This document shows positions 1 through 36,945 of a stretch of DNA of 64,000 bases, piece after piece; within the stretch, counting starts at the first letter, position 1, and each line of letters starts with the position of its first letter. Both the position numbers and the translations under genes were made by a program. The DNA is from Dictyostelium discoideum (taxonomy: Eukaryota). The stretch covers positions 8,096,001 to 8,160,000 of the forward strand of contig CM000151.3 in NCBI GenBank assembly GCA_000004695.1, written 5' to 3'. The notes beneath the pieces were generated by a model. The model searched no databases. It had not been told where the DNA came from and was given only the letters and a program-made list of their open reading frames with translations.

Positions 1-118
1 TTACACATAATGGTGTTGGGTGCCAGATAGGGCACTTTTTAAAATAATTTAATTTTAAAAAAAAAAATAAAATAAAAAAATAAAAAAAATATATTATATT
101 CGACTTCAAAAAATTTCA

Positions 119-161
<43 letters not shown>

Positions 162-396
162 CATTATATTTCATAACCCTCATAAATAATATTTATTAAT
201 ACAAATCTTCTTTTTTTATTTTAATTAATTATTTAATAACTTGTAAAATATTATATATATTTTTTTATTTTAAATTTATTTATTTTTTAATTTTTTATTA
301 ATTTTAATAACCCACTCCACAAAAACCCGTTTAATAATTTCACAAAAAAAAAAAAAAAAAAAAAAAAAATATTTTATTGTGTTTGCATATAAACAA

Positions 397-427
<31 letters not shown>

Positions 428-570
428 AAAAAAAAACAATAATATTTAAGATATTTATAAAAAAAAAAAGAAAAAAAAAAACCTTCCGAATTTTATATAA
501 AGAAAAAAAAAACAATAATATTTAGATATTTATAAAAAAAAAAAAAAAAAAAACAAATAAATTAAAGAAA

Positions 571-1513
571 ATGTATAATCCACCACCACCATCCGGTTCA
601 CAAGGTAACAATAATTATTATAGACAACCATCATCCACACCCGGTGTTTCTAACCCAAATCCACAAGCTAATCAATTTTTACCACCTCCACCTTCTAATA
701 CACAAGCTCCAAGACCAGGATTTCCACCAAGTGCTCCACCACCAAGTGCCCCAGCAGGACAATACAGTATGCCACCACCACCACAACAACAGCAACAAGC
801 AGGACAATATGGTATGCCACCACCACCATCAGGTTCAGGTATAGGTACAGGTGTTTCATTAGTAAAAGATCAACAAATTTCATTAAGTAAAGAGGATCCA
901 TATCTTAGAAAATTAACAGTAGGTTTAGGTTGGGATGTAAATACAACACCAAGTGCACCATTTGATTTGGATGCAGTAGTTTTTATGTTGGGTGCAAATG
1001 GTATGGTTCGTCAACCAGCAGATTTTATTTTTTATAATAACAAACAATCTAGGGATGGTTCAATCTTTCATCATGGTGATAATTTAACAGGTGCAGGTGA
1101 TGGAGACGATGAAGTCGTATCTGTAAACTTACAAGCAGTTTCACCTGACGTTACTCGTTTGGTTTTCGCCGTCACCATTCATCAACCTGAATTAAGAAGA
1201 CAAAATTTCGGTATGGTTCCAAGAGCTTTCATTCGTATTGCAAACCAAGAAACAACTAGAAATATATGTAGATACGATCTAACCAATGAAGGTGGTACAA
1301 ATACTGCTATGATTGTTGGTGAAGTTTATCGTGATCCTCAAAATCCTCAAAATTGGTCATTTATTGCTGTTGGTAAATCTTTCCCTGGTGGTTTACAATT
1401 CCTTTGTCAAATCTTTGGTGTAAGTTATATTTATTAATTAATTTTTTTTTTTTTTTTTAATTTTATTAACAATTATTTTTTTTTTATTTATTATATAGGT
1501 AAATGCGTCATAA
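571..1513 (+). CDS. TerD-domain protein, CABP1-like (cAMP-binding protein / tellurium-resistance TerD family); exons 571..1419 and 1499..1513
   Basis: 288-aa ORF with a Pro/Gln/Gly-rich N-terminus ([18 protein letters not shown] repeats) followed by a TerD-like core ([13 protein letters not shown]...[19 protein letters not shown]...[12 protein letters not shown]). In-frame GTAAGT donor at 1420 and tatatag acceptor ending at 1498 give a C-terminus ...QIFG-VNAS*. The Dictyostelium CABP1 family is known to be TerD-related. Confidence 0.8.
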
Positions 1514-2023
1514 ATTTTTTAATTTTAATTTTTTCTTAGGCATTTTTGGCAAATTAGTTGGTTGGAATTTTCACTCATAATTTTGTATACAGATATTTTT
1601 TTTTATTCCACATAACACAATAAACAATCACTTTTTTTGTTCTAAAATTACACTTTTATTTTTTATTTTTTTATTTTTGTTTAACCCAATTTTTAACCTA
1701 CTCGTTAACGTGGGAAGATTTTTTTTTTCCCAAGTTTCCAATTGTTTTTAAAATTTTATTTTTTTATTTTTTATTTTTTTATTGATGCCCTTTCAACTCT
1801 AAACGATTTTTTTTAAAAATTCAAACAAATTTTAAATTGCCGAATCGTTTTTTCAAGATCTGATTAGGCAAGTTTTTTCCACCAAAAGAATAAAAAAAAT
1901 TTTTAAAAAGTTGGGCTAAAGATATTTTAAAATATTTTTTTTTTTTTTTTTTGCAGTTTTAATTTTTTATTATAATTTTATTTTATTATATATATTTTTC
2001 AAAGAGTATACCACTAAATTAAA

Positions 2024-2948
2024 ATGTTAAAATTTATTCAAAAAATTTCAAAATCAAGGTGTAATTTTTTATATATATTTTTAATTTTAATTTTAATTAA
2101 TTTTTCAAATCCAAAAGTAAATTCTCAAACATTAAATAAAAATGAATATGATTGTTTAAAGAGTTTGTTAACCAATTTGGGATCAATCAATAAAGTTAAA
2201 ATTAATGCAACATCTTTAGAATATTTATTTTGTGGTACAATGGAATTTTCATCACCAAATGTTCAAATATTTTGTAATGAAGGTTCAATTTCAAAACTAA
2301 ATGTAGGACAAGCTAATTTCACATATACAGTAACTGATGATTTTTCATGTTTTAAAAATATGACTGAATTATCAGTGGATGATATTGTTTATGATAAAGA
2401 TAAATTTTATAATTAATATCCTCCAAATGCAAAAGAATTTTCATTTGATGGCACTGATTTAGTTTATGGAACTATTTCACCAATTATTAAAAAATATAAC
2501 TCAATGTCAATACAAAAAATACCAACAATAATTAAATTTTCTTGGTATTTAAATACAACTAAAATGTAGGTATAAAATAAATTATTATTATAATTAAAAT
2601 TATTTTTTTTTTAATCATTTTTATTTTCCTATTTAAAAAAAAAAAAAAAGTCATATAGAACTCTTTAGTACCTTTTAAAGGATATTTTTTAGTTTCATTT
2701 GATAATGATCTTGATGGTTCAAAAATTTGGGATTGTTCTATTTTAATTCATTCTCTAAATGTTCCATCATTAAATTTTATTACAGGCGATATTTCTTTAA
2801 ATCTAATGTTAGATTACGATCAATCATCATGGGGAAATATTACAACTTTTGGAGGAATGAGATATATGTCTCTAAGAGCTTCAGATTTATCATCTTTTCC
2901 ATTAGAGTTTTCAAATTTAAGATCTGAAGTTTTAAAATCTATGTATGT

Positions 2949-2992
<44 letters not shown>

Positions 2993-5621
2993 GACAAAAA
3001 AAAAAAAAAAAAAAGATATATTGAAATACCATTTTTAGCAGTATCTTCAAAGATTGATTTATCATTAATAGGAAAATCATTAGAATCATTATCTTTTTTT
3101 CATCCAAATAATTTTACATTTGGCGGCTTATTTCCAATAATTTTACCATCCAATGAAGCATTTAAAAAATTGGAATTTGTTAATGGAAATATTGAAACAT
3201 TTGATTTTTCATTATTTACAAATGTTGAAACATTATCATTAGAAAGTAATTTAATGTCAAATGATTTTCCTTCAAGTTTCAATAGAACAATTCATAGAAA
3301 ATTAAAACACCTTGATATAAGTAATAATAAAATGACAGGTACAATTGATGATTCATTTTGTCAATTAGAAATCATTGTTACAAATAATTCAATGACAGGT
3401 TTAATTCCAACTTGTTTTACATGTTTCTTTGGATTACCAGAAATAAATTTAGAAAGATATTTTATTGGAAATAATTTTATAAATTTAAATACACCTTCTT
3501 CACCATGTAAGTGTTTTATTTTTTATTTTTTATTTTTTATTTTTTATTTTTTATTTTTTTTTTTTAATTTGTTTTTTTTTACTAATTCCATTTATGATAT
3601 ATATATATATTTGTATTTAAGCAATTATCATTCCAAATATAGTTTTTAATAATACTTCAATTATTGAGGGTATTCCAATAGTTTTTTATGAATATTTAAT
3701 ATTTGGTGAAAATTTAGGTGGTAGTTGGGTTCCATTTACAGCTGTCTCTGATTCTGTAGGAACACCAATGATTTTTTCAATGATTGAGTCAAATAGTTTA
3801 TTTAAAGTATTTTGCTATGGAGAGCCCAAGTTTCCTTTAAACTTATCATACAGTAAGTCTAACCCAAACTATACATTTACTTTATCATTGGGAATACCAC
3901 CAATATTAAATTTAGTAGATTGGCAATCAAGTACAACTGATTTAGTAATAGATGGTTCATTCTTTACATATAATGGTTCTATAATTAATATTACAATTGG
4001 TAATGAAAATTGTTTCGTTACAAATACAAATTTTTATCAAATTAAATGTAAACTTTCAAATGTTATAGATCAATCATTAGAGGATATTATATCATATATT
4101 ACAATTGGTAATTTTAAAACTCAATTCACTTTAAATCCAGGTGTAATAAATACAATTTTAAATTGTACTGAAAATTATAATGATTGTAATGGTAATGGTA
4201 ATTGTTTATCTGATATTGGTAAATGTAAATGTGATTCAACTCATCAAGGTGATGATTGCTCAATCCCATATATAGAATGTTTAAATGATTGTAATAATGT
4301 TGGTCAATGTAATAATCAAACTGGTATTTGTTCATGCCCAATCACTCCTTACGAATGGATTGGTATTGATTGTTCAATTCCATTACATACAATATCAGCA
4401 GTTTCACCAAGTGATACCAATGGTGGTAGTGCTTCGATTTATGGTTGGTTTAGTAATAATCATACTGATCCACAAGTTTTCATTGGTAATAAACAATGTA
4501 TACCAATTTTTAGTATATCTGAAAGTGAAATTATTTGTAAAGCACCACCAGGTACAGGTTTAAAATCAGTAAGTGTAATTCAAAATTCAATCAATGTAAC
4601 ATCAAAAGATATTTATCAATATTATTCAAATGATAAACAATGTCCAAATCATTGTACATCGACATCAAATGGTATTTGTAATACAACAACTGGATATTGT
4701 AATTGTATCGGGAGATGGAGCGGTTATGATTGTAGTTTATATTCAAATCCAAGTGGTGGCGATAATAATAGTGGAATACCAGGATCAAATACAACAATAG
4801 ATGGTAATACTGGTAATACAAACATTACAAATCAACAAACAAATTATCAAATTTTAATTACAAAATTAATAGAGATAGATTTCAATGGTAATCAAATCAA
4901 TGAATATCTTTTATTAAATAAATGGTCAATAATTTCAAATATTAGTAAAACAGTTTACACATTCATTCAATCAATTCAAAATGATATATGTAATATTACA
5001 TATACAATTGAAGAAGTTAATAAAGATAGAGATGTATCATTTGCAGGTATTAATTTTAAATTAACAAGTGGATCAGTTAAAATGACAGTATCAATTGAAA
5101 ATTATCAATATTCAAGTAATTTAAATACATTACAATTACAAATGAAATCAAGTGTAAATGAAATTCAAACAAATAATGAAATGAATGATTGTAACGATGA
5201 TCAAATTGAAATTGATAGTACACCGAACCAAGATAATTCATTAAATTATATAACAATTAAAAAAGATGCAAAAGTTTTAAATGGTAGATTTATAGACAGA
5301 ATCGAAAGTGATGGTATATCAACATTTATGCAAACTGTGTTAGTATCAAAATCAAATGATTCAATTACAGTTGGTATGAATTTACCTCATTGTACAAAGA
5401 AATGTTTATTAGATCCTGACTTCTCTGTATTGATTAGTCCTGAATTCATTGATGAATGTGATGATAATAATCGTGAGTCATGGTTTTTACCAGTTGTGAT
5501 CGCTGTTCCAGTTGGAGGTCTAGCTGCAATTATTGCTATTGTTTTCATAATTTACAAAAAAAGATTTGTTGAAGCCCCATTAAAAAGAAAATTAAAATCA
5601 CTTAGAAATTATAAAAATTAA
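2024..5621 (+). pseudogene. Paralog A of an LRR / EGF-like / IPT-TIG single-pass membrane protein family; apparently disrupted; exons approx 2024..2565, ~2659/2693..2942, 3016..3506, 3622..5621
   Basis: Same four-exon architecture as the intact paralog C at 10401..13993, with near-identical nucleotide sequence in exons 1-4. TCA->TAA in exon 1 (2414..2416; C has aattCatatcc, A has aattAatatcc). A 1-nt insertion just after the predicted exon-2 acceptor creates an in-frame TAG (2656..2658). Exons 3-4 are fully open: signal peptide, LRR-like NxL repeats, CxCDSTHQGDDCS EGF-like, ISAVSPSDTNGGSASIYGWF IPT/TIG, TM LPVVIAVPVGGLAAIIAIVFIIY. Confidence 0.5.
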
Positions 5622-5941
5622 AATTGAAAATAAAAAAAGAAATAAAAAATAAAAATATCTAACCCAGGCATCTATAAAGTATAAAAAAAAAAAAAATAGT
5701 GGAAATAAAAAAAAAAAAAAAAAAAAGGTTTATATTAGAACAGATCCGAGCTGTGTTTAAAAAAAAAAAACTTTTTAATATTCAAAAGGTTTTAAAAAAA
5801 AAAAAATGGAAAAAATCAAAAAAAAAAAGAAAAAACAATGATGATTTTTTGTTTAAAAAAAAAAAACGTCTTTCCCAAACATAGATTTGTTTTCCAATAA
5901 ATTTCAAAACTAAAAAACAAAAACCCGAAAAGACACTCTTA

Positions 5942-6019
5942 TTTTTTTTATTTAATATCTTTTAAATTTTTATTCATTACGTAATGAATAAAAATTTAAA
6001 AGATATTAAATAAAAAAAA
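5942..6019. repeat. Perfect 78-bp palindrome (two 39-bp inverted arms, centre tac|gta at 5980/5981)
   Basis: Left arm 5942..5980 is the exact reverse complement of 5981..6019 (...ttaatatcttttaaatttttattcattacgtaatgaataaaaatttaaaagatattaa...). Flanked by a second imperfect inverted pair (aaacgtctttc at 5866 / gaaaagacgttt at 6046). Confidence 0.9.
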
Positions 6020-6197
6020 ATACGTAATTCAAATAAAATTTTGAAAAGACGTTTTTTTTTTTTTATTTTTGATCAATTAAATATATCATAATAATAATAA
6101 TAATAATAATATTAAATAATATTAAAAATAAATAAATAAAAATATAAAATAAAAAAAAAATAATTTTAAAAATAGTTAATTATTAAAAAAAAAGTAA

Positions 6198-7156
6198 ATG
6201 AAAAAATCTAAATCATTGATTTTTTATTTTTTTTTTATTTTTTTTTTATCTATTCAAGTAAATTCAAATGAATTAAATAAAAAAGAATATGATTGTTTGG
6301 TAAACTTTTTAACAAATTTGGGAAAAATATCAAATGTTGGTAAAAATGAAAAAACATTTGAATATGAATTTTGTAATCCCTTTTTTGTTTCATTACCAAC
6401 CGAAATAAAATGTAATCAAGGTTCAATCACTTATTTAGATACTGTTCAGTCAAATATTAGCTATATAATTAAAGATGAATTATTATGTTTTGATAATATT
6501 AATTATTTTTTACTTTCAAATATTAATTATGATAGTGCCATATTTTTCAATTCTTTCCCAAAGAGTTTAAATAAAGTTATTTTGACTGGAACGAATTTAC
6601 AATTTTCCAAAGTTACAAAAGATCTTCAAACGTTATCGATATCAATTATTTCTCAAAAAATTCCAACTACATTAAAATTTTCTTGGTTTTATAAAACTAC
6701 TCAATTGTATGTATTTATTAAATTTTTAAAAAGTTAAAAATTTGTATTAATTAAATATTAAATTGTTTTTTTGAAAAAAAAAAAAAATAAAAATAAAAAA
6801 AAAAAATAAAAAAAAAAAAAAAAATAAAAAAAAAAAAAAAAAAAAAAAATTAGTATTTTATCATCTACAAGTTTTTCAAGCAATAAAACACATTCAATAG
6901 CATTTGAAAATGATCTTAAAGATTCTGAAATTTGGGAAACTAATTACTTTAATATTATTTCATTAAATTTGCCAAAATTTAATAATGTTAAAGGATTTGT
7001 TCAAATCGAGTTAATAGAAGGATATAATCAAACTTCGTGGTCTAATATTAAAGAGATTGGGAATGTAACAAATATCTATATTAGAACAAATGATTTAACA
7101 GAATTTCCAAATGATCATCTATCAAATATCAGGTCTGATTCGATAGAGAAAATGTA

Positions 7157-7195
<39 letters not shown>

Positions 7196-9854
7196 ATATT
7201 AAATTAAACATTTAATTTTTTTTATTACTTAGAAATTTTGAAGTTCCGTTTAAATCTGTTAAAAAAATGTGCGATTTATCATCAATAGGTAAATCAATTC
7301 AAATTATTTCCTTTTCAAAATGTGGTAGAGATTTTTCATTTAATGGTTTAATGCCAATAATTTTACCAAATAACCAAGATTTTCAATATTTTTTTTTAAT
7401 TGGTGGCTATATTAAGAATTTTGATATTTTGCAATATAAAAGTGCTGAATATATTACATTAAGCAATAATTTGATGTCTGGTACCTTACCTTCAATTAAT
7501 AGTTTTAAATTCGGTAAATTAAAATATATTGATATTGGTTTTAATTTAATAACAGGTGAATTGGATGACTCATATTGTGAATTTGATATTATTGTAAACA
7601 ATAACTCAATGACTGGATTAATTCCAACCTGTTTTACATGTTTCTTTGGACTAACTGAATTAAATTTAAAATCGAGATTCATTGGTAATAATTTTACAAA
7701 TTTAGATCAACCTTCATCTCCATGTAAGTTGAAGTAGTATTTTTTAACTTTTTTTTAAAATTAAAAAGATTGAATAAATTTGAAAAAAAATTACTGACTA
7801 TATTTTATTTATAATAATAAAGCAATTATTTCACCAAATTTGATTTTCTCAAATATTGAAATATTTCAAGGTCAACCTCATTATAAATATTATATCTTTG
7901 GTGAAAATTTAGGTGGGGCTTGGATTGATGAATCAAATGCAGAGATTATTGGCTTTGATGTGAAATTTAGGGTAATAAAACCAAATAAACTAATATCACT
8001 TTACTCTCTTTCATCATTTTCTAGTATTGTAACATTTTCATATAGTAGAATAAATTCAAATTATAGATTTACTTTATCAGCAGATTTAATAACACCAAAA
8101 TTAATAAAGGTTGAATGGGTTAGTAATTCTCAAGATTTAGCTTTTGAAGGTTTTTATTTTTCCTATAATAAATCAATAATTAACATTTCAATTGGTGATG
8201 TTAATTGTCAAGTTACAAGTAGTACTTTTTATAATATTAACTGTACTCTTTTGGCACCAATAGATCTTACTTTAATTGATATTGTATCATTTATAACAGT
8301 TGGTAATTTAACAACTCAGTTCACTTTAAATCCAGGTGTTACAAATAATTTACTATATTGTATTAATGGATGTGGTGGAAATGGAATTTGTTTTTCCGAT
8401 ATTGGTAAATGTAAATGTGATTCGACTCATCAAGGTGATGATTGTTCATTACCATATATTGAATGTCCAATTAATTGTACCAATTTAAGTGTATGTAATA
8501 ATGTAACTGGTGAATGTTCATGTCCATCATTCTTAATTTGGAGCGGTATTGATTGCTCATTTCCATTACATACAATATCTGCAGTTTCACCAAGTGATAT
8601 CAATGGTGGTAGTGCTTCAATTTATGGTTGGTTTGGTAATATTCATAATGACCCACAAGTTTTCATTGGTACTAAACAATGTATACCAATTTATAATATA
8701 TCTGAAAGTGAAATTATTTGTAAAGCACCACCAGGTACAGGTTTAAAATCAGTAAGTGTAATTCAAAATTCAATCAATGTGACATCAAAAGATATTTATC
8801 AATATTATTCAAATGATAAACAATGTCCAAATCATTGTACATCGACATCAAATGGCATTTGTAATACAACAACTGGATATTGTAATTGTATTGGAAGATG
8901 GAGCGGTTATGATTGTAGTTTATATTCTAATCCAAGTGGCGGTGGCGATAATAGTGGTGGATTACCAGGATCTAATACAACAATAGATGGTAATACTGGT
9001 AATACAAATATTACACTGGTAATACAAATATTACAAATCAACACACAAATTATCAAATTTTAATTACAAAATTAATAGAGATAGATTTCAATGGTAATCA
9101 AATCAATGAATATCTATTATTAAATAAATGGTCAATAATTTCGAATATTAGTAAAACAGTTTACACATTCAATCAATCAATTCAAAATGATAAATGTAAT
9201 ATCACATATACAATTGAAGAAGTTAATAAAGATAGAGATGTATCATTTGCGGGTATTAATTTTAAATTAACAAGTGGATCAGTTAAAATGACAGTATCAA
9301 TTGAAAATTATCAATATTCAAGTAATTTAAATACATTACAATTACAAATGAAATCAAGTGTAAATGAAATTCAAATAAATCATGAAATGAATGATTGTAA
9401 CAATGATCAAATTGAAATCAATAATACACCAAATCAATATAATTCATTAAATTATATAACAATTAAAAAAGATGCAAAAGTTTTAAATGGTAGATTTATA
9501 GACAGAATCGAAAGTGATGGTATATCAACATTTATGCAAACTGTATTAGTATCAAAATCAAATGACTCAATTACAGTTGGTATGAATTTACCTCATTGTA
9601 CAAAGAAATGTTTATTAGATCCTGATTTCTCTGTATTGGTTAGTCCTGAATTCGTTGATGAATGTGATAATGATCGAAAATCCTTTTTTTTACCAGTTGT
9701 TATAGTGGTTCCTATTGTTTTTTTAATTTTAATAATTATTTTTGTAGTTATTACTATAAAAAAAAGATATGTTGAGATGTATTTATTTAAATCAAAAATA
9801 AAACAATTGGCAAACTTAAAAAATATTAAAATAAATAAAAAAACAGAATTATAA
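6198..9854 (+). pseudogene. Paralog B of the LRR/EGF/IPT-TIG membrane protein family; frameshifted in exon 4; exons approx 6198..6706, 6854..7153, 7233..7723, 7823..9854
   Basis: Exon junctions are phase-consistent (TT|GTATGT...ag|T; AT|GTAAGT...ag|A; T|GTAAGT...ag|CA). A 20-bp tandem duplication (ACTGGTAATACAAATATTAC x2 at 8995..9034), absent from paralogs A and C, shifts the frame so translation terminates at 9061..9063. The downstream 9064..9854 (IPT/TIG, TM, tail) remains open only in the +2 frame. The N-terminal exons are much more diverged from A/C than A and C are from each other. Confidence 0.55.
8995..9034 (+). repeat. 20-bp x2 tandem duplication causing the frameshift in paralog B
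   Basis: ACTGGTAATACAAATATTAC occurs twice consecutively here, but once at the homologous positions in paralogs A (~4803) and C (~13177). Confidence 0.85.
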
Positions 9855-10400
9855 TAAATAAAAATTTGATTAACAGGATTCATTTTAAAAAATTTTTAAA
9901 TATCTTCCAAACAAATCCAAATATCCATTTTCTTTTTTTTAAAAACAAATCAACACTGAAAATTCTTAAGTTTGTACGGCCGTACACAAAGTAATTTTAT
10001 GCACACCTATTTTACCTTTATTTTCCCTTTATTTTTACATTTTTTTTTTTTTGGTGAATTTTTTAGAAAAAAAAAAAAAAGAAATAAAAAAAACGAAAAA
10101 AAAAAATCAAACACCGCAATTACCTTCCGGCAAAACATTAAAATAAAAAAATAAAAATAAGATATTTTTTTTTAATATTTTCATTTTTGTGTCTGTTCGG
10201 TGTTTCAACCAAAATTTTAATCTATTAATCGTTTTGTTTAAAAAAAAAAAAAATGTTAAAATGTTGGGAAAAAGTTTTTTTTTTTTTTTTTTTAATTTTA
10301 ATTTATTTTATTTTATAATAATTTTATTTATTTTATTTATTTTATTTAATTTTAATTAATTTTATTTTATTTATTTTTCAAAATATATCTCCAAATTAAA

Positions 10401-11337
10401 ATGTTGAATTTTATTCAAAAAATTTCAAAATCTGGGTGTAATTTTTTTTATTTATTTTTAATTTTAATTTTAATTAATTTTTCAAATCCAAAAGTAAATT
10501 CTCAAACATTAAATAAAAATGAATATGATTGTTTAAAGAGTTTGTTAACAAATTTGGGATCAATCAATAAAGTTAAAATTAATACAACATCTTTAGAATA
10601 TTTATTTTGTGGTACATTGGAATTTCTATCACCAAATGTTAAAATATTTTGTAATGAAGGTTCAATTTCAAAATTAAGTGTAGGACAAGCTAATTTCACA
10701 TATACAGTAACTGATGATTTTTCATGTTTTAAAAATATGACTAATTTATCTGTTGATAATATTGTTTATGATAAAGATAAATTTTATAATTCATATCCTC
10801 CAAATGCAAAAGAATTTTCATTTGATGGCACTGATTTAGTTTATGGAACTATTTCACCAATTATTAAAATTTTTGACTCAATGTCAATACAAAATATACC
10901 AACAATAATTAAATTTTCTTGGTATTTAAATACAACTAAAATGTAAGTTTAAAATTAATTATTATTATTATTATTTTAATGAATACTAATAAAATTTTTT
11001 TTTTTATCATTTTTATTTTTCCTATTTAAAAAAAAAAAAGTGTAATAGCCTCTTTCGTACCTTTTAAAGGATATTTTTTAGTTTCATTTGATAATGATCT
11101 TGATGGTTCAAAAATTTGGGATTGTTCTATTTTAATTCATTCTCTAAATGTTCCATCATTAAATTTTATTACAGGTGAAATTACTTTAAATCTAATGTTA
11201 GATTACGATCAATCATCATGGGGAAATATTACAACTTTTGGAGGAATGAGATATATGTCTCTAATATCTTCAAATTTATCATATTTTCCATTAGAATTTT
11301 CAAATTTAAGATCTGAAGTTTTAAAATCTATGTATGT

Positions 11338-11380
<43 letters not shown>

Positions 11381-13993
11381 CAAAAAAAAAAAAAAAAGAT
11401 TTATTGAAATACCATTTTTAGCAGTATCTTCAAAAATTGATTTATCATTAATAGGAAAATCATTAGAATCATTATATTTTTTTCATCCAAATAATTTTAC
11501 ATTTGGTGGTTTATTTCCAATAATTTTACCATCAAATGAAGCATTTAAAAAATTGGAATTTGTTTATGGAAATATTGAAATATTAGATCTTTCATTATTT
11601 ACAAATGTTGAAACATTATCATTAAAATGTAATTTAATGTCCAATGGTTTTCCTTCAAGTTTCAATAGAACAATTCATAGAAAATTAAAACACATTGATA
11701 TAAGCAATAATAGTATTACAGGTACAATTGATGATTCATTTTGTCAATTGGAAATCATTGTTACAAATAATTCAATGACAGGTTTAATTCCAACTTGTTT
11801 TACATGTTTCTTTGGATTACCAGAAATAAATTTAGAAAGATATTTTATTGGAAATAATTTTATAAATTTAAATACACCTTCTTCACCATGTAAGTGTTTT
11901 ATTTTTTATTTTTTATTTTTTATTTTTTTATTTTAATTTGTTTTTTTTTACTAATTCCATTTATGATATATATATATATTTGTATTTAAGCAATTATCAT
12001 TCCAAATATAGTTTTTAATAATACTTCAATTATTGAGGGTTCAATAGTTTTTTATGAATATTTAATATTTGGTGAAAATTTAGGTGGTAGTTGGGTTCCA
12101 TTTACAGCTGTCTCTGATTCTGTAGGAACACCAATGATTATTTCAATGATTGAGCCAAATAGTTTATTTAAATTATTTTGCAATGGAGAGCCCAAGTTTC
12201 CTTTAAACTTATCATACAGTAAGTCTAACCCAAACTATACATTTACTTTATCATTGGGAATACCACCAATATTAAATTTAGTAGATTGGCAATCAAGTAC
12301 AACTGATTTAGTAATAGATGGTTCATTCTTTACATATAATAGTTCTATAATTAATATTACAATTGGTAATGAAAATTGTTTGGTTACAAATACAAATTTT
12401 TATCAAATTAAATGTACACTTTCAAATGTTATAGATCAATCATTAGAGGATATTATATCATATATTACAAATGGTAATTTAATAACTCAATTCACTTTAA
12501 ATCCAGGTGTAATAAATACAATTTTAAATTGTACTGAAAATTATAATGATTGTAATGGTAATGGATATTGTTTATCTGATATTGGTAAATGTAAATGTGA
12601 TCCAACCCATCAAGGTGGTGATTGCTCTTTGCCATATATAGAATGTTTAAATGATTGTAATAATGTTGGTCAATGTAATAATCAAACTGGTATTTGCTCG
12701 TGTCCAATCTCTCCTTATGAATGGAGTGGTATTGATTGTTCAATTCCATTACATACAATATCTGCAGTTTCACCAAGTGATACCAATGGTGGTAGCGCTT
12801 CAATTTATGGTTGGTTTAGTAATAATCATACTTATCTACAAGTTTTCATTGGTAATAAACAATGTATACCAATTTATAATATATCTAAAAGTGAAATTAT
12901 TTGTAAAGCACCACCAAGTACAGGTTTAAAATCAGTTAGTGTAATTCAAAATTCAATCAATGTAACATCAAAAGATATTTATCAATATTATTCAAATGAT
13001 AAACAATGTCCAAATCATTGTACATCGACATCAAATGGCATTTGTAATACAACAACTGGATATTGTAATTGTATTGGAAGATGGAGCGGTTATGATTGTA
13101 GTTTATATTCAAATCCAAGTGGTGGTGGCGATAATAGTGGTGGATTACCAGGATCAAATACAACAATAGATGGTAATACTGGTAATACAAATATTACAAA
13201 TCAACAAACAAATTATCAAATTTTAATTACAAAATTAATAGAGATAGATTTCAATGGTAATCAAATCAATGAATATCTATTATTAAATAAATGGTCAATA
13301 ATTTCAAATATTAGTAAAACAGTTTACACATTCATTCAATCAATTCAAAATGATAAATGTAATATCACATATACAATTGATGAAATTAATAAAGATAGAG
13401 ACACAACTTTCGCAGGTATTAATTTTAAATTAACAAGTGGATCAGTTAAAATGACAGTATCAATTGAAAACTATCAATATTCAAGTAATTTAAATACATT
13501 ACAATTACAAATGAAATCAAGTGTAAATGAAATTCAAACAAATAATGAAAATGATTGTAACAATGATCAAATTGAAATCAATAATACACCAAATCAAGAT
13601 AATTCATTAAATTATATGACAATTAAAAAAGATGCAAAAGTTTTAAATGGTAGATTTATAGACAGAATCGAAAGTGATGGTATATCAACATTTATGCAAA
13701 CTGTGTTAGTATCAAAATCAAATGATTCAATTACAGTTGGTATGAATTTACCTCATTGTACAAAGAAATGTTTATTAGATCCTGATTTCTCTGTATTGGT
13801 TAGTCCTGAATTCGTTGATGAATGTGGTGGTGATAATGATCGAAAATCCTGGTTTTTACCAGTTGTTATAGTGGTTCCTATTGTTTTTTTAACCTTAATA
13901 ATTATTTTTGTAGTTATTACTATAAAAAAAAGATTTGTTGAGATGTATTTATTTAAATCAAAAATAAAACAATTGGCAAACTTAAATAAATAA
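10401..13993 (+). CDS. Paralog C (intact) of the LRR / EGF-like / IPT-TIG type-I membrane protein family; exons 10401..10942, 11041..11331, 11399..11889, 11991..13993
   Basis: Signal peptide (MLNFIQKISKSGCNFFYLFLILILINFSNPKVNSQ). Cys-containing N-terminal domain. LRR-like repeats (LSLKCNLMSNGFPSSFNRTIHRKLKHIDISNNSITGTIDDSFCQLEIIVTNNSMTGLIPTCF). Two EGF-like modules (CNGNGYCLSDIGKCKCDPTHQGGDCSLPYIECLNDCNNVGQCNNQTGICSCP). IPT/TIG-like module (ISAVSPSDTNGGSASIYGWF...ICKAPPSTGLKSVSV). C-terminal TM (LPVVIVVPIVFLTLIIIFVVITI) and short basic tail. Donors ATG|GTAAGT, AT|GTATGT, T|GTAAGT with phase-consistent acceptors. Confidence 0.7.
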
Positions 13994-15172: not shown

Positions 15173-16037
15173 ATATTCTCAACACTGTTTTGAAAATAAA
15201 AATAAAAAATAAAAAATAAAAAATAAAAAATCTCATTACTTACAATTGTCACACACAATAATTTTTAAAAAAAAAATAATAATAATCATAATAATGTGAA
15301 AATACTTTTAGAAATATAGAAGGAAATAAAATTAAATATCTAATATGGGATAGTGCTGGACAAGATAGATTTCGAAGTTTAGCTACACTTTATTATCGTG
15401 GTGCATGTGTTGCAATTTTAGTATTTGATATAACTCAACAAAAAACATTTGATATAGTTAAAGGATGGGTTGAAGAATTAAAAGCAAATATTCAAGAAGA
15501 AATTAGTAAGTATATATAATGTATATATATTAATGTATATATATATATTAATTATTTATACTTTATAATTTTTTTTTTTTTTTTTTTTCAAAAATTAATT
15601 AATTAATAATAGTAATGGTATTATGTGGAAATAAAATTGATTTAGAACAAAATAGACAAGTTAAAAGTGAGACAGCAAAATTATATGCAGATGAAATTAA
15701 TGCAATGTATGTTGAAACCTCTGCAAAAGAGAATGAAGGTGTTGAAGGAATGTTTTTAGAGATTGGAAAGAAATTAATATTAAATAAACATAATGAATAC
15801 TTTAAACAATTTCAACAACAACAAAAACTTCATAAACAATTCCAACAACAAAATCAAAGCTTATATCAATATCATATACAACAACAAAAACATCAACAAC
15901 AACAACAACAACAACAACAACAAATTTTTAAAAATCAACAATTTTATAATAATGGTCATCTTCAAGGCAGTATAAATGGTCATAATAATCAAAATTCAAC
16001 AAATTATAGTGATAATAGTGATCAATGTTGTGGTTAA
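14957..16037 (+). CDS. Rab-family small GTPase with a poly-Gln C-terminal extension; exons 14957..15108, 15312..15505, 15613..16037
   Basis: G1 GSSDVGKT, switch II WDSAGQDRF, YYRGA, G4 GNKIDL, G5 ETSAK. C-terminus ...DQCCG* (double-Cys prenylation-type tail). Introns AT|GTATGT...tttag|A and A|GTAAGT...aatag|TA. Q-rich insert ([10 protein letters not shown]) before the tail. Confidence 0.85.
15113..15175. repeat. (AAAT)n microsatellite (about 15 units) inside Rab intron 1
   Basis: aaataaataaataaat... run directly visible in the sequence. Confidence 0.9.
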
Positions 16038-23531: not shown

Positions 23532-24324
23532 TTAATACTGTTGGTTGTAGATTGCGTTGATGTACACCTTGATTTAAATTAATGTTATGGTTTGCTTTTG
23601 AGACTATTGAGTGGATGGTGAACAAATGAACAAAATTCACTATTATTATTACTATTTGGTTGCTGGTTGTTTGTTTGTTTGTTGGTGTTAGTGTTACATT
23701 CCGAGGTTTATCGATGGTATTATTACAACTTGAAAAAGAGGAAGAGTTATTTGACTTTTTCAAGTTGTAATAATAATAATACCATCGAACAATAAGAAGA
23801 GGAAGTTGATATATTTAAGTTGTTAAATGATGATGCTAAATTGCTCCCCTTATTATTTATATGGCTATTATATGATGATGTTTGTTGTGGATTTGAATTA
23901 AAATAGCCACCACTATTATTCATACAGCTTCTATTGTTATTATTTACCAAATGAGTACTACTATTCACTGATGCTCATAAATTTTGATTAGATGTTGATA
24001 CAAAACTTTCAAATTCAGAACATCATTACAAAATGTGAAAGAATTTTCGCTATTATTATTATTATTTCTTTTTTTTTTCACACCCAAACAACCAATACCA
24101 CTGCCACTATTATTCATAGCATTTTTATTACTTTTAAAATTAAATTATCATGAAGAATTTAATGAATCACCACTTATATTTGTATTGAATGCTCCAAAAT
24201 TTTGATTAGATGTTGTTGGTGATACAAAACTTTCAAGTTCAAAATCATTATCAATGTAAAAGAACCACCTCCTATCCTGGTTTAAAAAACAACCAGTGAT
24301 AACACAATAATTTTTTTTTTTTTT

Positions 24325-28261: not shown

Positions 28262-29395
28262 ATGAAAAGATTTATTTCAACAACAAGTTTACGTGTTTTA
28301 TCAAATTTAAATAAAAACAATAACAATAACAACAAGTTTAACAAATCAATTGTTGGAGTATTCAATAGAGAATTCTCAAGTTCAAATGAAGGATTAAATA
28401 AAGTTAATTTTGGTGAAAATAATAACTCATCCACCACTGAACCAACTAAAGTATTATTTAACGATTCACAATTTTATCAAGAGGATAAATATCAAGGTAT
28501 TTCAAAAGAACCATTTAGTAAAGAGATTGTTGATACTTTATTAGCAGATTTAAATCCAGACGATATTGAAATCAAACCAGATGGTTTAATTTATTTACCA
28601 GAGATCAAATATAGACGTATTTTAAATCAAGCATTCGGACCAGGAGGTTGGGCATTAAAACCATTCGGACCACCAGTTGTCGAGGGTAAAACATTGATTA
28701 GACCTTATGCACTCTATTGTTTAGGTAGATATGTAGCCGAATCCATTGGTGAGCAACAATACGTTCCAAATTCATTCATTTCATTTGCCACCGCCACTGA
28801 ATCTGCTAAATCCAATGCATTGGTTCGTTGTTGTAAAGATTTAGGTATTGGCTCAAGTCTTTGGGATCCAATTTTCATTCGTCAATGGAAATCTGAATAT
28901 GCCACAGAGAGATGGTGTGAAAATTCAAAAACAAAAGAAAGACGTTTGTTTTGGTTCCTTTCAAATCGTTCAGAAAATCAACTTCCATATCCATGGAAAG
29001 AATCTGATTTTAATCAAGTACCATCAAATTCATCATATTCATCATCATCATCATCAATAAATAACAATAGTAATAGTAGTAATAATAATAATAATAATAG
29101 TGATTCATCATCTTCAATAAATCAACCACAACAAGAAACAATTTCATATCATCAAGATGATTCATCTTCACCATCATCAAAAATTACAGAACAACAAGAT
29201 GATTCAGAAGATATTGATATCGATGATGTAGTACCACCACAATTAAAGAAATATGCAGGTAAAACATGGAGACAACTTGTTGCTGATCCAAAAGGTCTTA
29301 GTTATTTACAATGGGCTTCTTCATCATTCGATAATGCCCCCAAAATTAAAAGTCAAGCAACTGCAATTTTAGAATTTATCAATAAAAGTCAATAA
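28262..29395 (+). CDS. mgm101: Mitochondrial genome maintenance protein Mgm101 homologue (Rad52-like ssDNA annealing protein)
   Basis: [33 protein letters not shown] and [21 protein letters not shown] are near-identical to the yeast Mgm101 core ([54 protein letters not shown]). N-terminal [11 protein letters not shown] is presequence-like. Ser/Asn-rich C-terminal extension. Confidence 0.9.
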   Translation: [377 protein letters not shown]

Positions 29396-36685: not shown

Positions 36686-36945
36686 TTTTGACCAAACCCC
36701 AAAAAGTTTTCCTTTTCACTTTTTTTTTTTTTTTTTTTTTCATTTTGACAAACACTAAACTATTTTTAACTTTAAAAAAAATAAATAAATAAATATTTAT
36801 TTATTTATTTTGGAATTTAATTTTAAATAGATAAAAAAAAAAAAAAAGTAATTTAAATTGATAATATTATCAAAGACTGAGTAGATAGATAATTTTGAAA
36901 TTATAAATGATTTCTTTTTTATTTTTATTTTTATTTTTATTTTTA

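Follow-up and report, generated by a model that had tools for sequence, protein, structure and literature searches.

The perfect palindrome of 78 bp found between two tandem ComC-family genes of Dictyostelium discoideum AX4 is most probably a mutational scar, left by a template switch in the AX4-type laboratory-strain lineage, and not a built element. The palindrome is single-copy, is not conserved and is already catalogued. It is probably neutral, with no selected function, and its likely present-day effect is just a local tendency toward the formation of hairpins or cruciforms.

Genomic context

The window, i.e. the whole 64-kb stretch of DNA that was analysed, has a G+C content of ∼22%. The open reading frames around the palindrome are those of the Dictyostelium ComC family and display LRR_ComC, EGF, TIG and ComC_SSD domains. 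A search of AX4 protein models with paralog A gave none at high identity. The following genes are referred to below.

2024–5621, + strand: ComC-family paralog A; its stop codon, at 5619–5621, is 320 bp to the left of the palindrome
6198–9854, + strand: ComC-family paralog B; its ATG, at 6198, is 179 bp to the right of the palindrome
10401–13993, + strand: ComC-like paralog C, the third tandem copy
28262–29392: mgm101 gene; its protein is identical to the mgm101 protein of D. discoideum AX4

Paralog B has a 20-bp tandem duplication (ACTGGTAATACAAATATTAC, present twice, at 8995–9014 and 9015–9034). Paralogs A and C, and all orthologues examined in three other genomes (L001, L004 and L005, described below), have a single copy of this sequence. 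The extra 20 bp put the reading frame out of register, so that in this strain B has probably become a pseudogene.

Structure of the palindrome

Window positions 5942–5980 (TTTTTTTTATTTAATATCTTTTAAATTTTTATTCATTAC) are the exact reverse complement of positions 5981–6019. The result is a flawless palindrome with 39-nt arms and a spacer of zero, as the first-pass annotation had described it. The centre of symmetry is between C5980 and G5981 (TTAC/GTAA), and the A+T content is 92%. The component parts, none of which has a strand assignment, are as follows.

5942–5980: left arm of the palindrome; resident DNA, with the orthologous site occupied in all five genomes compared
5981–6019: right arm, identical to the left arm when read on the opposite strand; 5986–6019 is missing in L001, L005 and L004
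5976–5985: 10-bp mini-palindrome ATTACGTAAT, at the centre; in strains without a right arm, this site reads ATTATGTAAT or ATTATGTGAT
5978–5985: copy 1 of the 8-bp direct repeat TACGTAAT, from sequence and alignment
6021–6028: copy 2 of TACGTAAT, from sequence, alignment and the template-switch reconstruction
5940–6022: extended quasi-palindrome (TA+T8...A9+TA), which adds 2 nt per side when one bulged A is allowed

The palindrome is a strong outlier, far beyond chance. The runner-up among perfect palindromes in the 64 kb has arms of only 17 nt and is of low complexity, (AAAT)n/(ATTT)n, at 36778–36811. In Markov simulations (100 per order), the longest arm is 14 nt at order 1, 15 nt at order 3 and 26 nt at order 5; arms of at least 39 nt would be expected at ∼8e-15 centres. 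The first-pass annotation had considered that this might be a common low-complexity AT palindrome, present by chance; it is not.

No second copy of the arm or of the centre is found in the 64-kb window when up to three mismatches are allowed, and the spacer, when compared by BLAST with the window, gives low-complexity AT noise only. There are also no further copies in ∼135 kb of related loci, and the published table of AX4 palindromes has one entry only with the core of this palindrome. The first-pass annotation had proposed a search for other copies; in these three sources, the palindrome is single-copy.

For either strand, the DNA hairpin is predicted at −32 kcal/mol, and its z-score against shuffled sequences is −12 to −13. 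The L005 and L004 sequences, which have no right arm, fold like shuffles (z = 0.09 and −0.05, respectively). These predictions support the palindrome as a strong candidate for hairpin and cruciform formation. The same suggestion had been made from the sequence initially, and it gains from the published snap-back protection of three stem cytosines described in the next section.

Published record of the palindrome

Drewell et al. (2023; PMC10111430) list 1770 AX4 palindromes, and their Table S1 has the same sequence verbatim at chr2:8101942–8102019, with a width of 78. The chr2 coordinate is the window coordinate plus 8,096,000, and a second palindrome of Table S1 falls exactly where this conversion predicts. 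The window is therefore AX4 chr2:8,096,001–8,160,000. In the paper, chr2:8101942–8102019 is among seven palindromic regions that hold 11 'robust' sites. Non-converted cytosines are reported at 8101959(+), 8101986(−) and 8102002(−), which are window positions 5959, 5986 and 6002, all within the palindrome's stem; the three are non-converted in four of four methylomes. The authors regard the sites as false positives, with snap-back hairpins of single strands shielding the cytosines from bisulfite. From the published listing and the bisulfite protection, it follows that the palindrome and its ability to form a single-strand hairpin are already known. The passages searched contain no discussion of the origin, polymorphism or gene context of the palindrome.

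Most entries of the published list, in the part examined, are poly(A)/poly(T) or microsatellite-like, but complex palindromes of 60–87 nt recur. Another complex example from this list is a perfect 70-bp palindrome at chr2:8244147. Because such complex palindromes recur in AX4, the palindrome described here belongs to a class and is not unique.

Comparison between strains

Syntenic regions were fetched from other assemblies via homologous proteins. The five genomes compared represent four independent haplotypes. The assemblies are probably from Holland et al. 2025 (PMC12745789), a study that used Nanopore and Illumina de novo assembly and that includes the laboratory strain AX2-214 in its set. 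L002 (D. discoideum GCA_054883475.1) is an independent de novo assembly and is probably AX2-214. The D. discoideum isolates L001 and L005 diverge locally from the window by 4–5%, and L004, labelled D. cf. discoideum, by 7.5%. Two further assemblies, L003 and L006, are without the B-type spacer. Exact-protein look-ups for more haplotypes, with the TerD open reading frame, B exon 1 and DDB_G0270704, returned no records. A homology search with B exon 1 gave no matches, though orthologues exist, and a scan of metagenomes for the conserved left flank gave zero matches.

Over window positions 1–7975, L002 has four substitutions, a few homopolymer indels and an identical palindrome. In L001, L005 and L004, the left flank and the left arm are present, the arm with a few differences, followed by ATTATGT(A/G)AT and then directly by T(C/A)AAATAAAATT...TTTTGAAAAGAC. 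In L005, GTAAT runs straight into TCAAATAAAATT, the very bases that come after the second GTAAT in AX4, at window position 6029. This matching junction means that the AX4-type sequence differs by one block:

5986–6028 (equivalently 5978–6020), no strand: AX4-type-only block of 43 bp, from the alignment

The block consists of the reverse complement of 5942–5975, one extra A and the second TACGTAAT. Accordingly, among the genomes compared, the palindrome is present only in the AX4-type sequences, i.e. the window and L002.

Apart from the four substitutions, AX4 and L002 differ almost entirely in poly(A) length, at 2954, 6817 and other homopolymer runs, with differences of 9–10 bp at two sites. 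These may reflect real homopolymer instability or an error of the sequencing platform. L002 also has a fourth ComC-like paralog (10001–13009), which is inverted, lies beyond the TerD gene and adjoins retroelements. The corresponding AX4 DNA falls immediately to the left of the window. An 84-bp palindrome, with 36-nt arms, a 12-nt loop and AATTTTAAAGGT repeats, is found four times in L002 (17057, 19246, 21057 and 22401). These copies sit among reverse-transcriptase and integrase genes and are of a repeat-family type, unlike the single-copy 78-bp palindrome.

The strains differ in structure elsewhere in the spacer and the array. L001 has ∼3.5 kb of extra DNA between its A and B orthologues, flanked by inverted repeats of ∼100 bp (1614–1717 and 5065–5168, 96–97% identical); parts of this extra DNA are also found in L005. 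The ∼3.5-kb segment looks like a DNA-transposon insertion. The gene models of paralog A are shorter in L004 and L005. All of these differences are in genomes without the palindrome, and in this small sample no structural variation is centred on the palindrome, the signature that the first-pass annotation had proposed to look for.

Flanking repeats and motifs

Three further features, none with a strand assignment, are found near the palindrome.

5855–5873: left arm of an outer 19-nt inverted repeat, A12CGTCTTT; older and separate, present in all strains
6045–6063: its right-hand partner, AAAGACGT12; a single mismatch (GACA versus GACG) is found here in the other strains
6029–6040: 12-bp unit TCAAATAAAATT, single in the window, from the alignment

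The palindrome had been described as nested in a larger imperfect inverted repeat. A perfect 19-nt repeat does exist on its two sides, but it is separate and the two are not concentric: the outer repeat is off-centre relative to the palindrome, with gaps of 68 nt (left) and 25 nt (right). The intervening DNA displays no obvious complementarity between the two. There are two G/C-containing inverted repeats of the outer-repeat type in the window.

The motif GAAA(A)GAC is found three times within 190 bp (5867–5875, 5927–5934 and 6042–6049), as one inverted and two direct copies. These copies and the outer inverted repeat may belong to the promoter of paralog B, or may be left over from an earlier event. 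The unit of 12 bp, T(C/A)AAATAAAATT, is present once in AX4, twice in L004 (∼15945–15975) and three times in both L001 and L005 (12758–12793 in L005). This variation in copy number is independent of the palindrome.

AX4 has CpG at 5980/5981 (TACGTA) and at 6049/6050 (GACGTT), and L001, L005 and L004 show TpG or CpA at these positions (TATGTA, GACATT). At both sites, the AX4 state completes a local inverted repeat.

A proposed template-switch origin

The ancestral sequence was taken to be the window minus the 43-bp block and was tested with a single four-point template switch. One such switch regenerates the observed sequence exactly, given one 1-nt change in the T8/A9 run; when no extra change is allowed, exact reconstruction fails by one A or T in this homopolymer run. 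The 33 equivalent solutions arise from microhomologies of 10 nt at the first switch and 2 nt (TA) at the return. Switch points 1 and 2 have 11 equivalent placements across ATTACGTAAT.

The proposed series of steps is as follows. In the AX4-type lineage, DNA synthesis proceeding from left to right would arrive at the self-complementary ATTACGTAAT (5976–5985). The growing 3′ end would re-pair with ATTACGTAAT on the same-sense strand, via a fold-back or on the sister template. The ∼35 nt just passed would then be copied in reverse, back to 5940–5942, and this copy would become the right arm. Synthesis would return to the original template at 5978–5980 via the 2-nt TA microhomology. The TACGTAAT sequence is duplicated because the return point is upstream of the point of departure, i.e. 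point 4 is before point 1. In the description of Walker et al. (2021; PMC7954356), this order of points results in one large insertion and a direct repeat. The net product would be a templated inverted insertion of 43 bp, which turns a 10-bp mini-palindrome into a perfect palindrome of 78 bp. The event would be an expansion from a 10-bp seed. To judge from the sequence, synthesis at a replication fork and snap-back or break-repair synthesis would both fit.

A second event that resembles a template switch is found at 23755–23793, where 39 bp replace 10 bp (TGATATTGAA/T) of L001 and L003. Thirty-four of the 39 bp are the reverse complement of 23712–23739, ∼20 bp upstream, and the copy keeps a longer (ATT)n count that is still present in L001. 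This leaves, at 23711–23793, a ∼27-nt inverted repeat whose arms are 15–18 nt apart. That two events are found on the AX4 branch within ∼24 kb of comparable sequence suggests that the process is not rare.

Direction and age of the change

Branch lengths derived from site patterns in ∼1.8 kb of flanking sequence are 86 for L004, 39 for the AX4 type, 16 for the clade of L001 and L005, 10 for L001 and 34 for L005. These lengths place the midpoint root on the L004 branch, in line with the view that such D. cf. discoideum isolates are possible cryptic sister species (PMC12745789). A tree rooted there requires only a single gain, compared with two losses.

The left arm reads TTTAAT in AX4, against TTAAAT in L001, L005 and L004, and the AX4-specific form is mirrored in the right arm. 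An AX4-specific C, which perfects the 10-bp ATTACGTAAT, occurs in both copies of TACGTAAT. Thus, both substitutions predate the duplication.

The converse history is that the palindrome is ancestral and that its right arm disappeared from the other lineages, either when slippage joined the TACGTAAT copies or in a palindrome-stimulated deletion. The 8-bp repeat flanks the missing block exactly, as a slippage deletion would need, and perfect palindromes are unstable (reviewed in PMC7999016). However, with the root on the L004 branch, such losses would have to comprise two identical deletions, and the retained arm would have to have undergone C-to-T and T-to-A changes in parallel; moreover, the arms would have to stay perfect along the entire AX4 branch. 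In addition, L001, L005 and L004 display no visible remnants of a right arm and no local excess of folding. An ancestral palindrome therefore appears improbable. The data point to a gain of the palindrome, as drawn from five genomes (four haplotypes) with midpoint and species-label rooting in a fast-evolving array; a root on the AX4 branch instead would make gain and loss equally parsimonious.

The AX4 branch is ∼2% long, and the probability that an old palindrome would come through such a branch unaltered by chance is ∼0.2. For this reason, the perfection of the arms is weak evidence of youth. The palindrome nevertheless appears to be much younger than the three-paralog array, since the branch is only ∼2% long and strains without the palindrome share the array. 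The first-pass annotation had linked the palindrome to rearrangement and gene conversion in the array. This link is not supported: among the genomes compared, the palindrome is limited to the AX4 type, it appears to be younger than the array, and the structural differences are found elsewhere.

Other readings of the palindrome

A cis-acting function has been considered, in which the palindrome would bind a dimeric factor as part of the B promoter, terminate A or give rise to a hairpin RNA. Its position, 179 bp before the B ATG and 320 bp past the A stop codon, speaks for such a function, and expansion of inverted repeats at yeast promoters can alter expression (PMC13100816). The shape of the hairpin is like that of a miRNA precursor. 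But the right arm is missing upstream of B orthologues that are annotated as full-length in three genomes, and in this strain B itself is frameshifted. Matches to Rfam are weak and miRNA-shaped, with 22–25 bits compared with gathering thresholds of 63–74 (the best has 24.7 against 74). Matches of this type are expected for any perfect hairpin. The palindrome sequence was not found in the supplements of a study of Amoebozoa miRNA. A functional cis-element is decidedly improbable, and the regulatory or terminator role that had been raised at first is not borne out by the B orthologues or by the frameshift in B.

An origin as a mobile element (a MITE or foldback element), or as what a hairpin-type excision with an 8-bp target-site duplication leaves behind, is very improbable. 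The insert of 35 bp is bordered by an 8-bp direct repeat, and other strains have transposon-like DNA in the same spacer. Against this, the insert is an exact inverted copy of adjacent resident DNA and is not foreign, the left arm is orthologous in all genomes compared, and dispersed copies are absent from the 64-kb window and the ∼135 kb of related loci, with one entry in the published table. The centre of symmetry is inside the repeated 8-mer and not at its end. A MITE, foldback transposon or footprint is rejected on these grounds: the palindrome is single-copy in the sequences searched, the insert copies its neighbour, and the centre falls within the repeated 8-mer.

Foldback chimeras can make perfect palindromes, and the centre is TACGTA, but an artefact of assembly, cloning or sequencing is effectively refuted by the identical sequence in the independent de novo assembly L002 and by the three cytosines called in four of four methylomes in PMC10111430.

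Significance

A template switch would explain the origin of one published 'methylation artefact' palindrome of the reference strain. The strain comparison shows it to be a polymorphism of the laboratory-strain lineage, not a conserved feature. Together with the event at 23755–23793, it would be one of two clear-cut cases of template-switch mutation, with the direction assigned, in an amoebozoan. As a single locus, the palindrome is ordinary. Should such switches turn out to be frequent across the genome, they would contribute notably to new structures and to local fragility in this very AT-rich DNA. Perhaps template switching continually makes long, perfect, strain-specific palindromes, some of which serve as fragile sites, promoter modifiers or seeds of hairpin RNAs in fast-evolving arrays of surface-protein genes such as the ComC-like cluster, but this is a speculative and somewhat doubtful extension.

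Relation to known systems

The palindrome is the same object as one of the AX4 bisulfite false-positive palindromes of Drewell et al. (PMC10111430), with identical sequence and coordinates. It resembles the fragile human PATRRs and the long palindromes of yeast and E. coli in that it is AT-rich, perfect and spacer-free and has a strong predicted potential to form hairpins or cruciforms. It differs in length, with 78 bp compared with ∼200–600 bp (PMC7999016), and in that no breakpoints or rearrangements are centred on it in the small sample of genomes compared.

The expansion of inverted repeats at yeast promoters (PMC13100816) is also recent, lineage-specific, located upstream of genes and ascribed to template switching. 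Here, however, the downstream gene is frameshifted, and the palindrome is not known to have a transcription-factor site or an effect on expression. Ripley-type quasipalindrome correction in bacteria and yeast (PMC3820800) similarly has switching within a self-complementary sequence and an increase in arm identity. The present case differs in that there was no substantial prior imperfect palindrome, and the outcome would be an expansion and not a correction of mismatches. Quasipalindrome correction was rejected as an explanation; sequences without the right arm show no excess folding and have just the 10-bp seed.

The four-point model of short-range template switching is found in Loytynoja and Goldman (2017) and in Walker et al. 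(PMC7954356). The case described here shares with the model a descendant-specific segment that is the reverse complement of nearby ancestral DNA. Also shared are the fragments L→1, 2→3 (the reverse complement) and 4→R, the creation of a perfect inverted repeat and the position of point 4 before point 1, with a large insertion and a direct repeat. It differs from the model cases in that the first-switch microhomology, 10 nt long and self-complementary, is unusually long, and in that the host is an AT-rich amoeba and not an ape or yeast. Unlike the usual four-point case, the copied stretch directly abuts its template, and for this reason the product is spacer-free.
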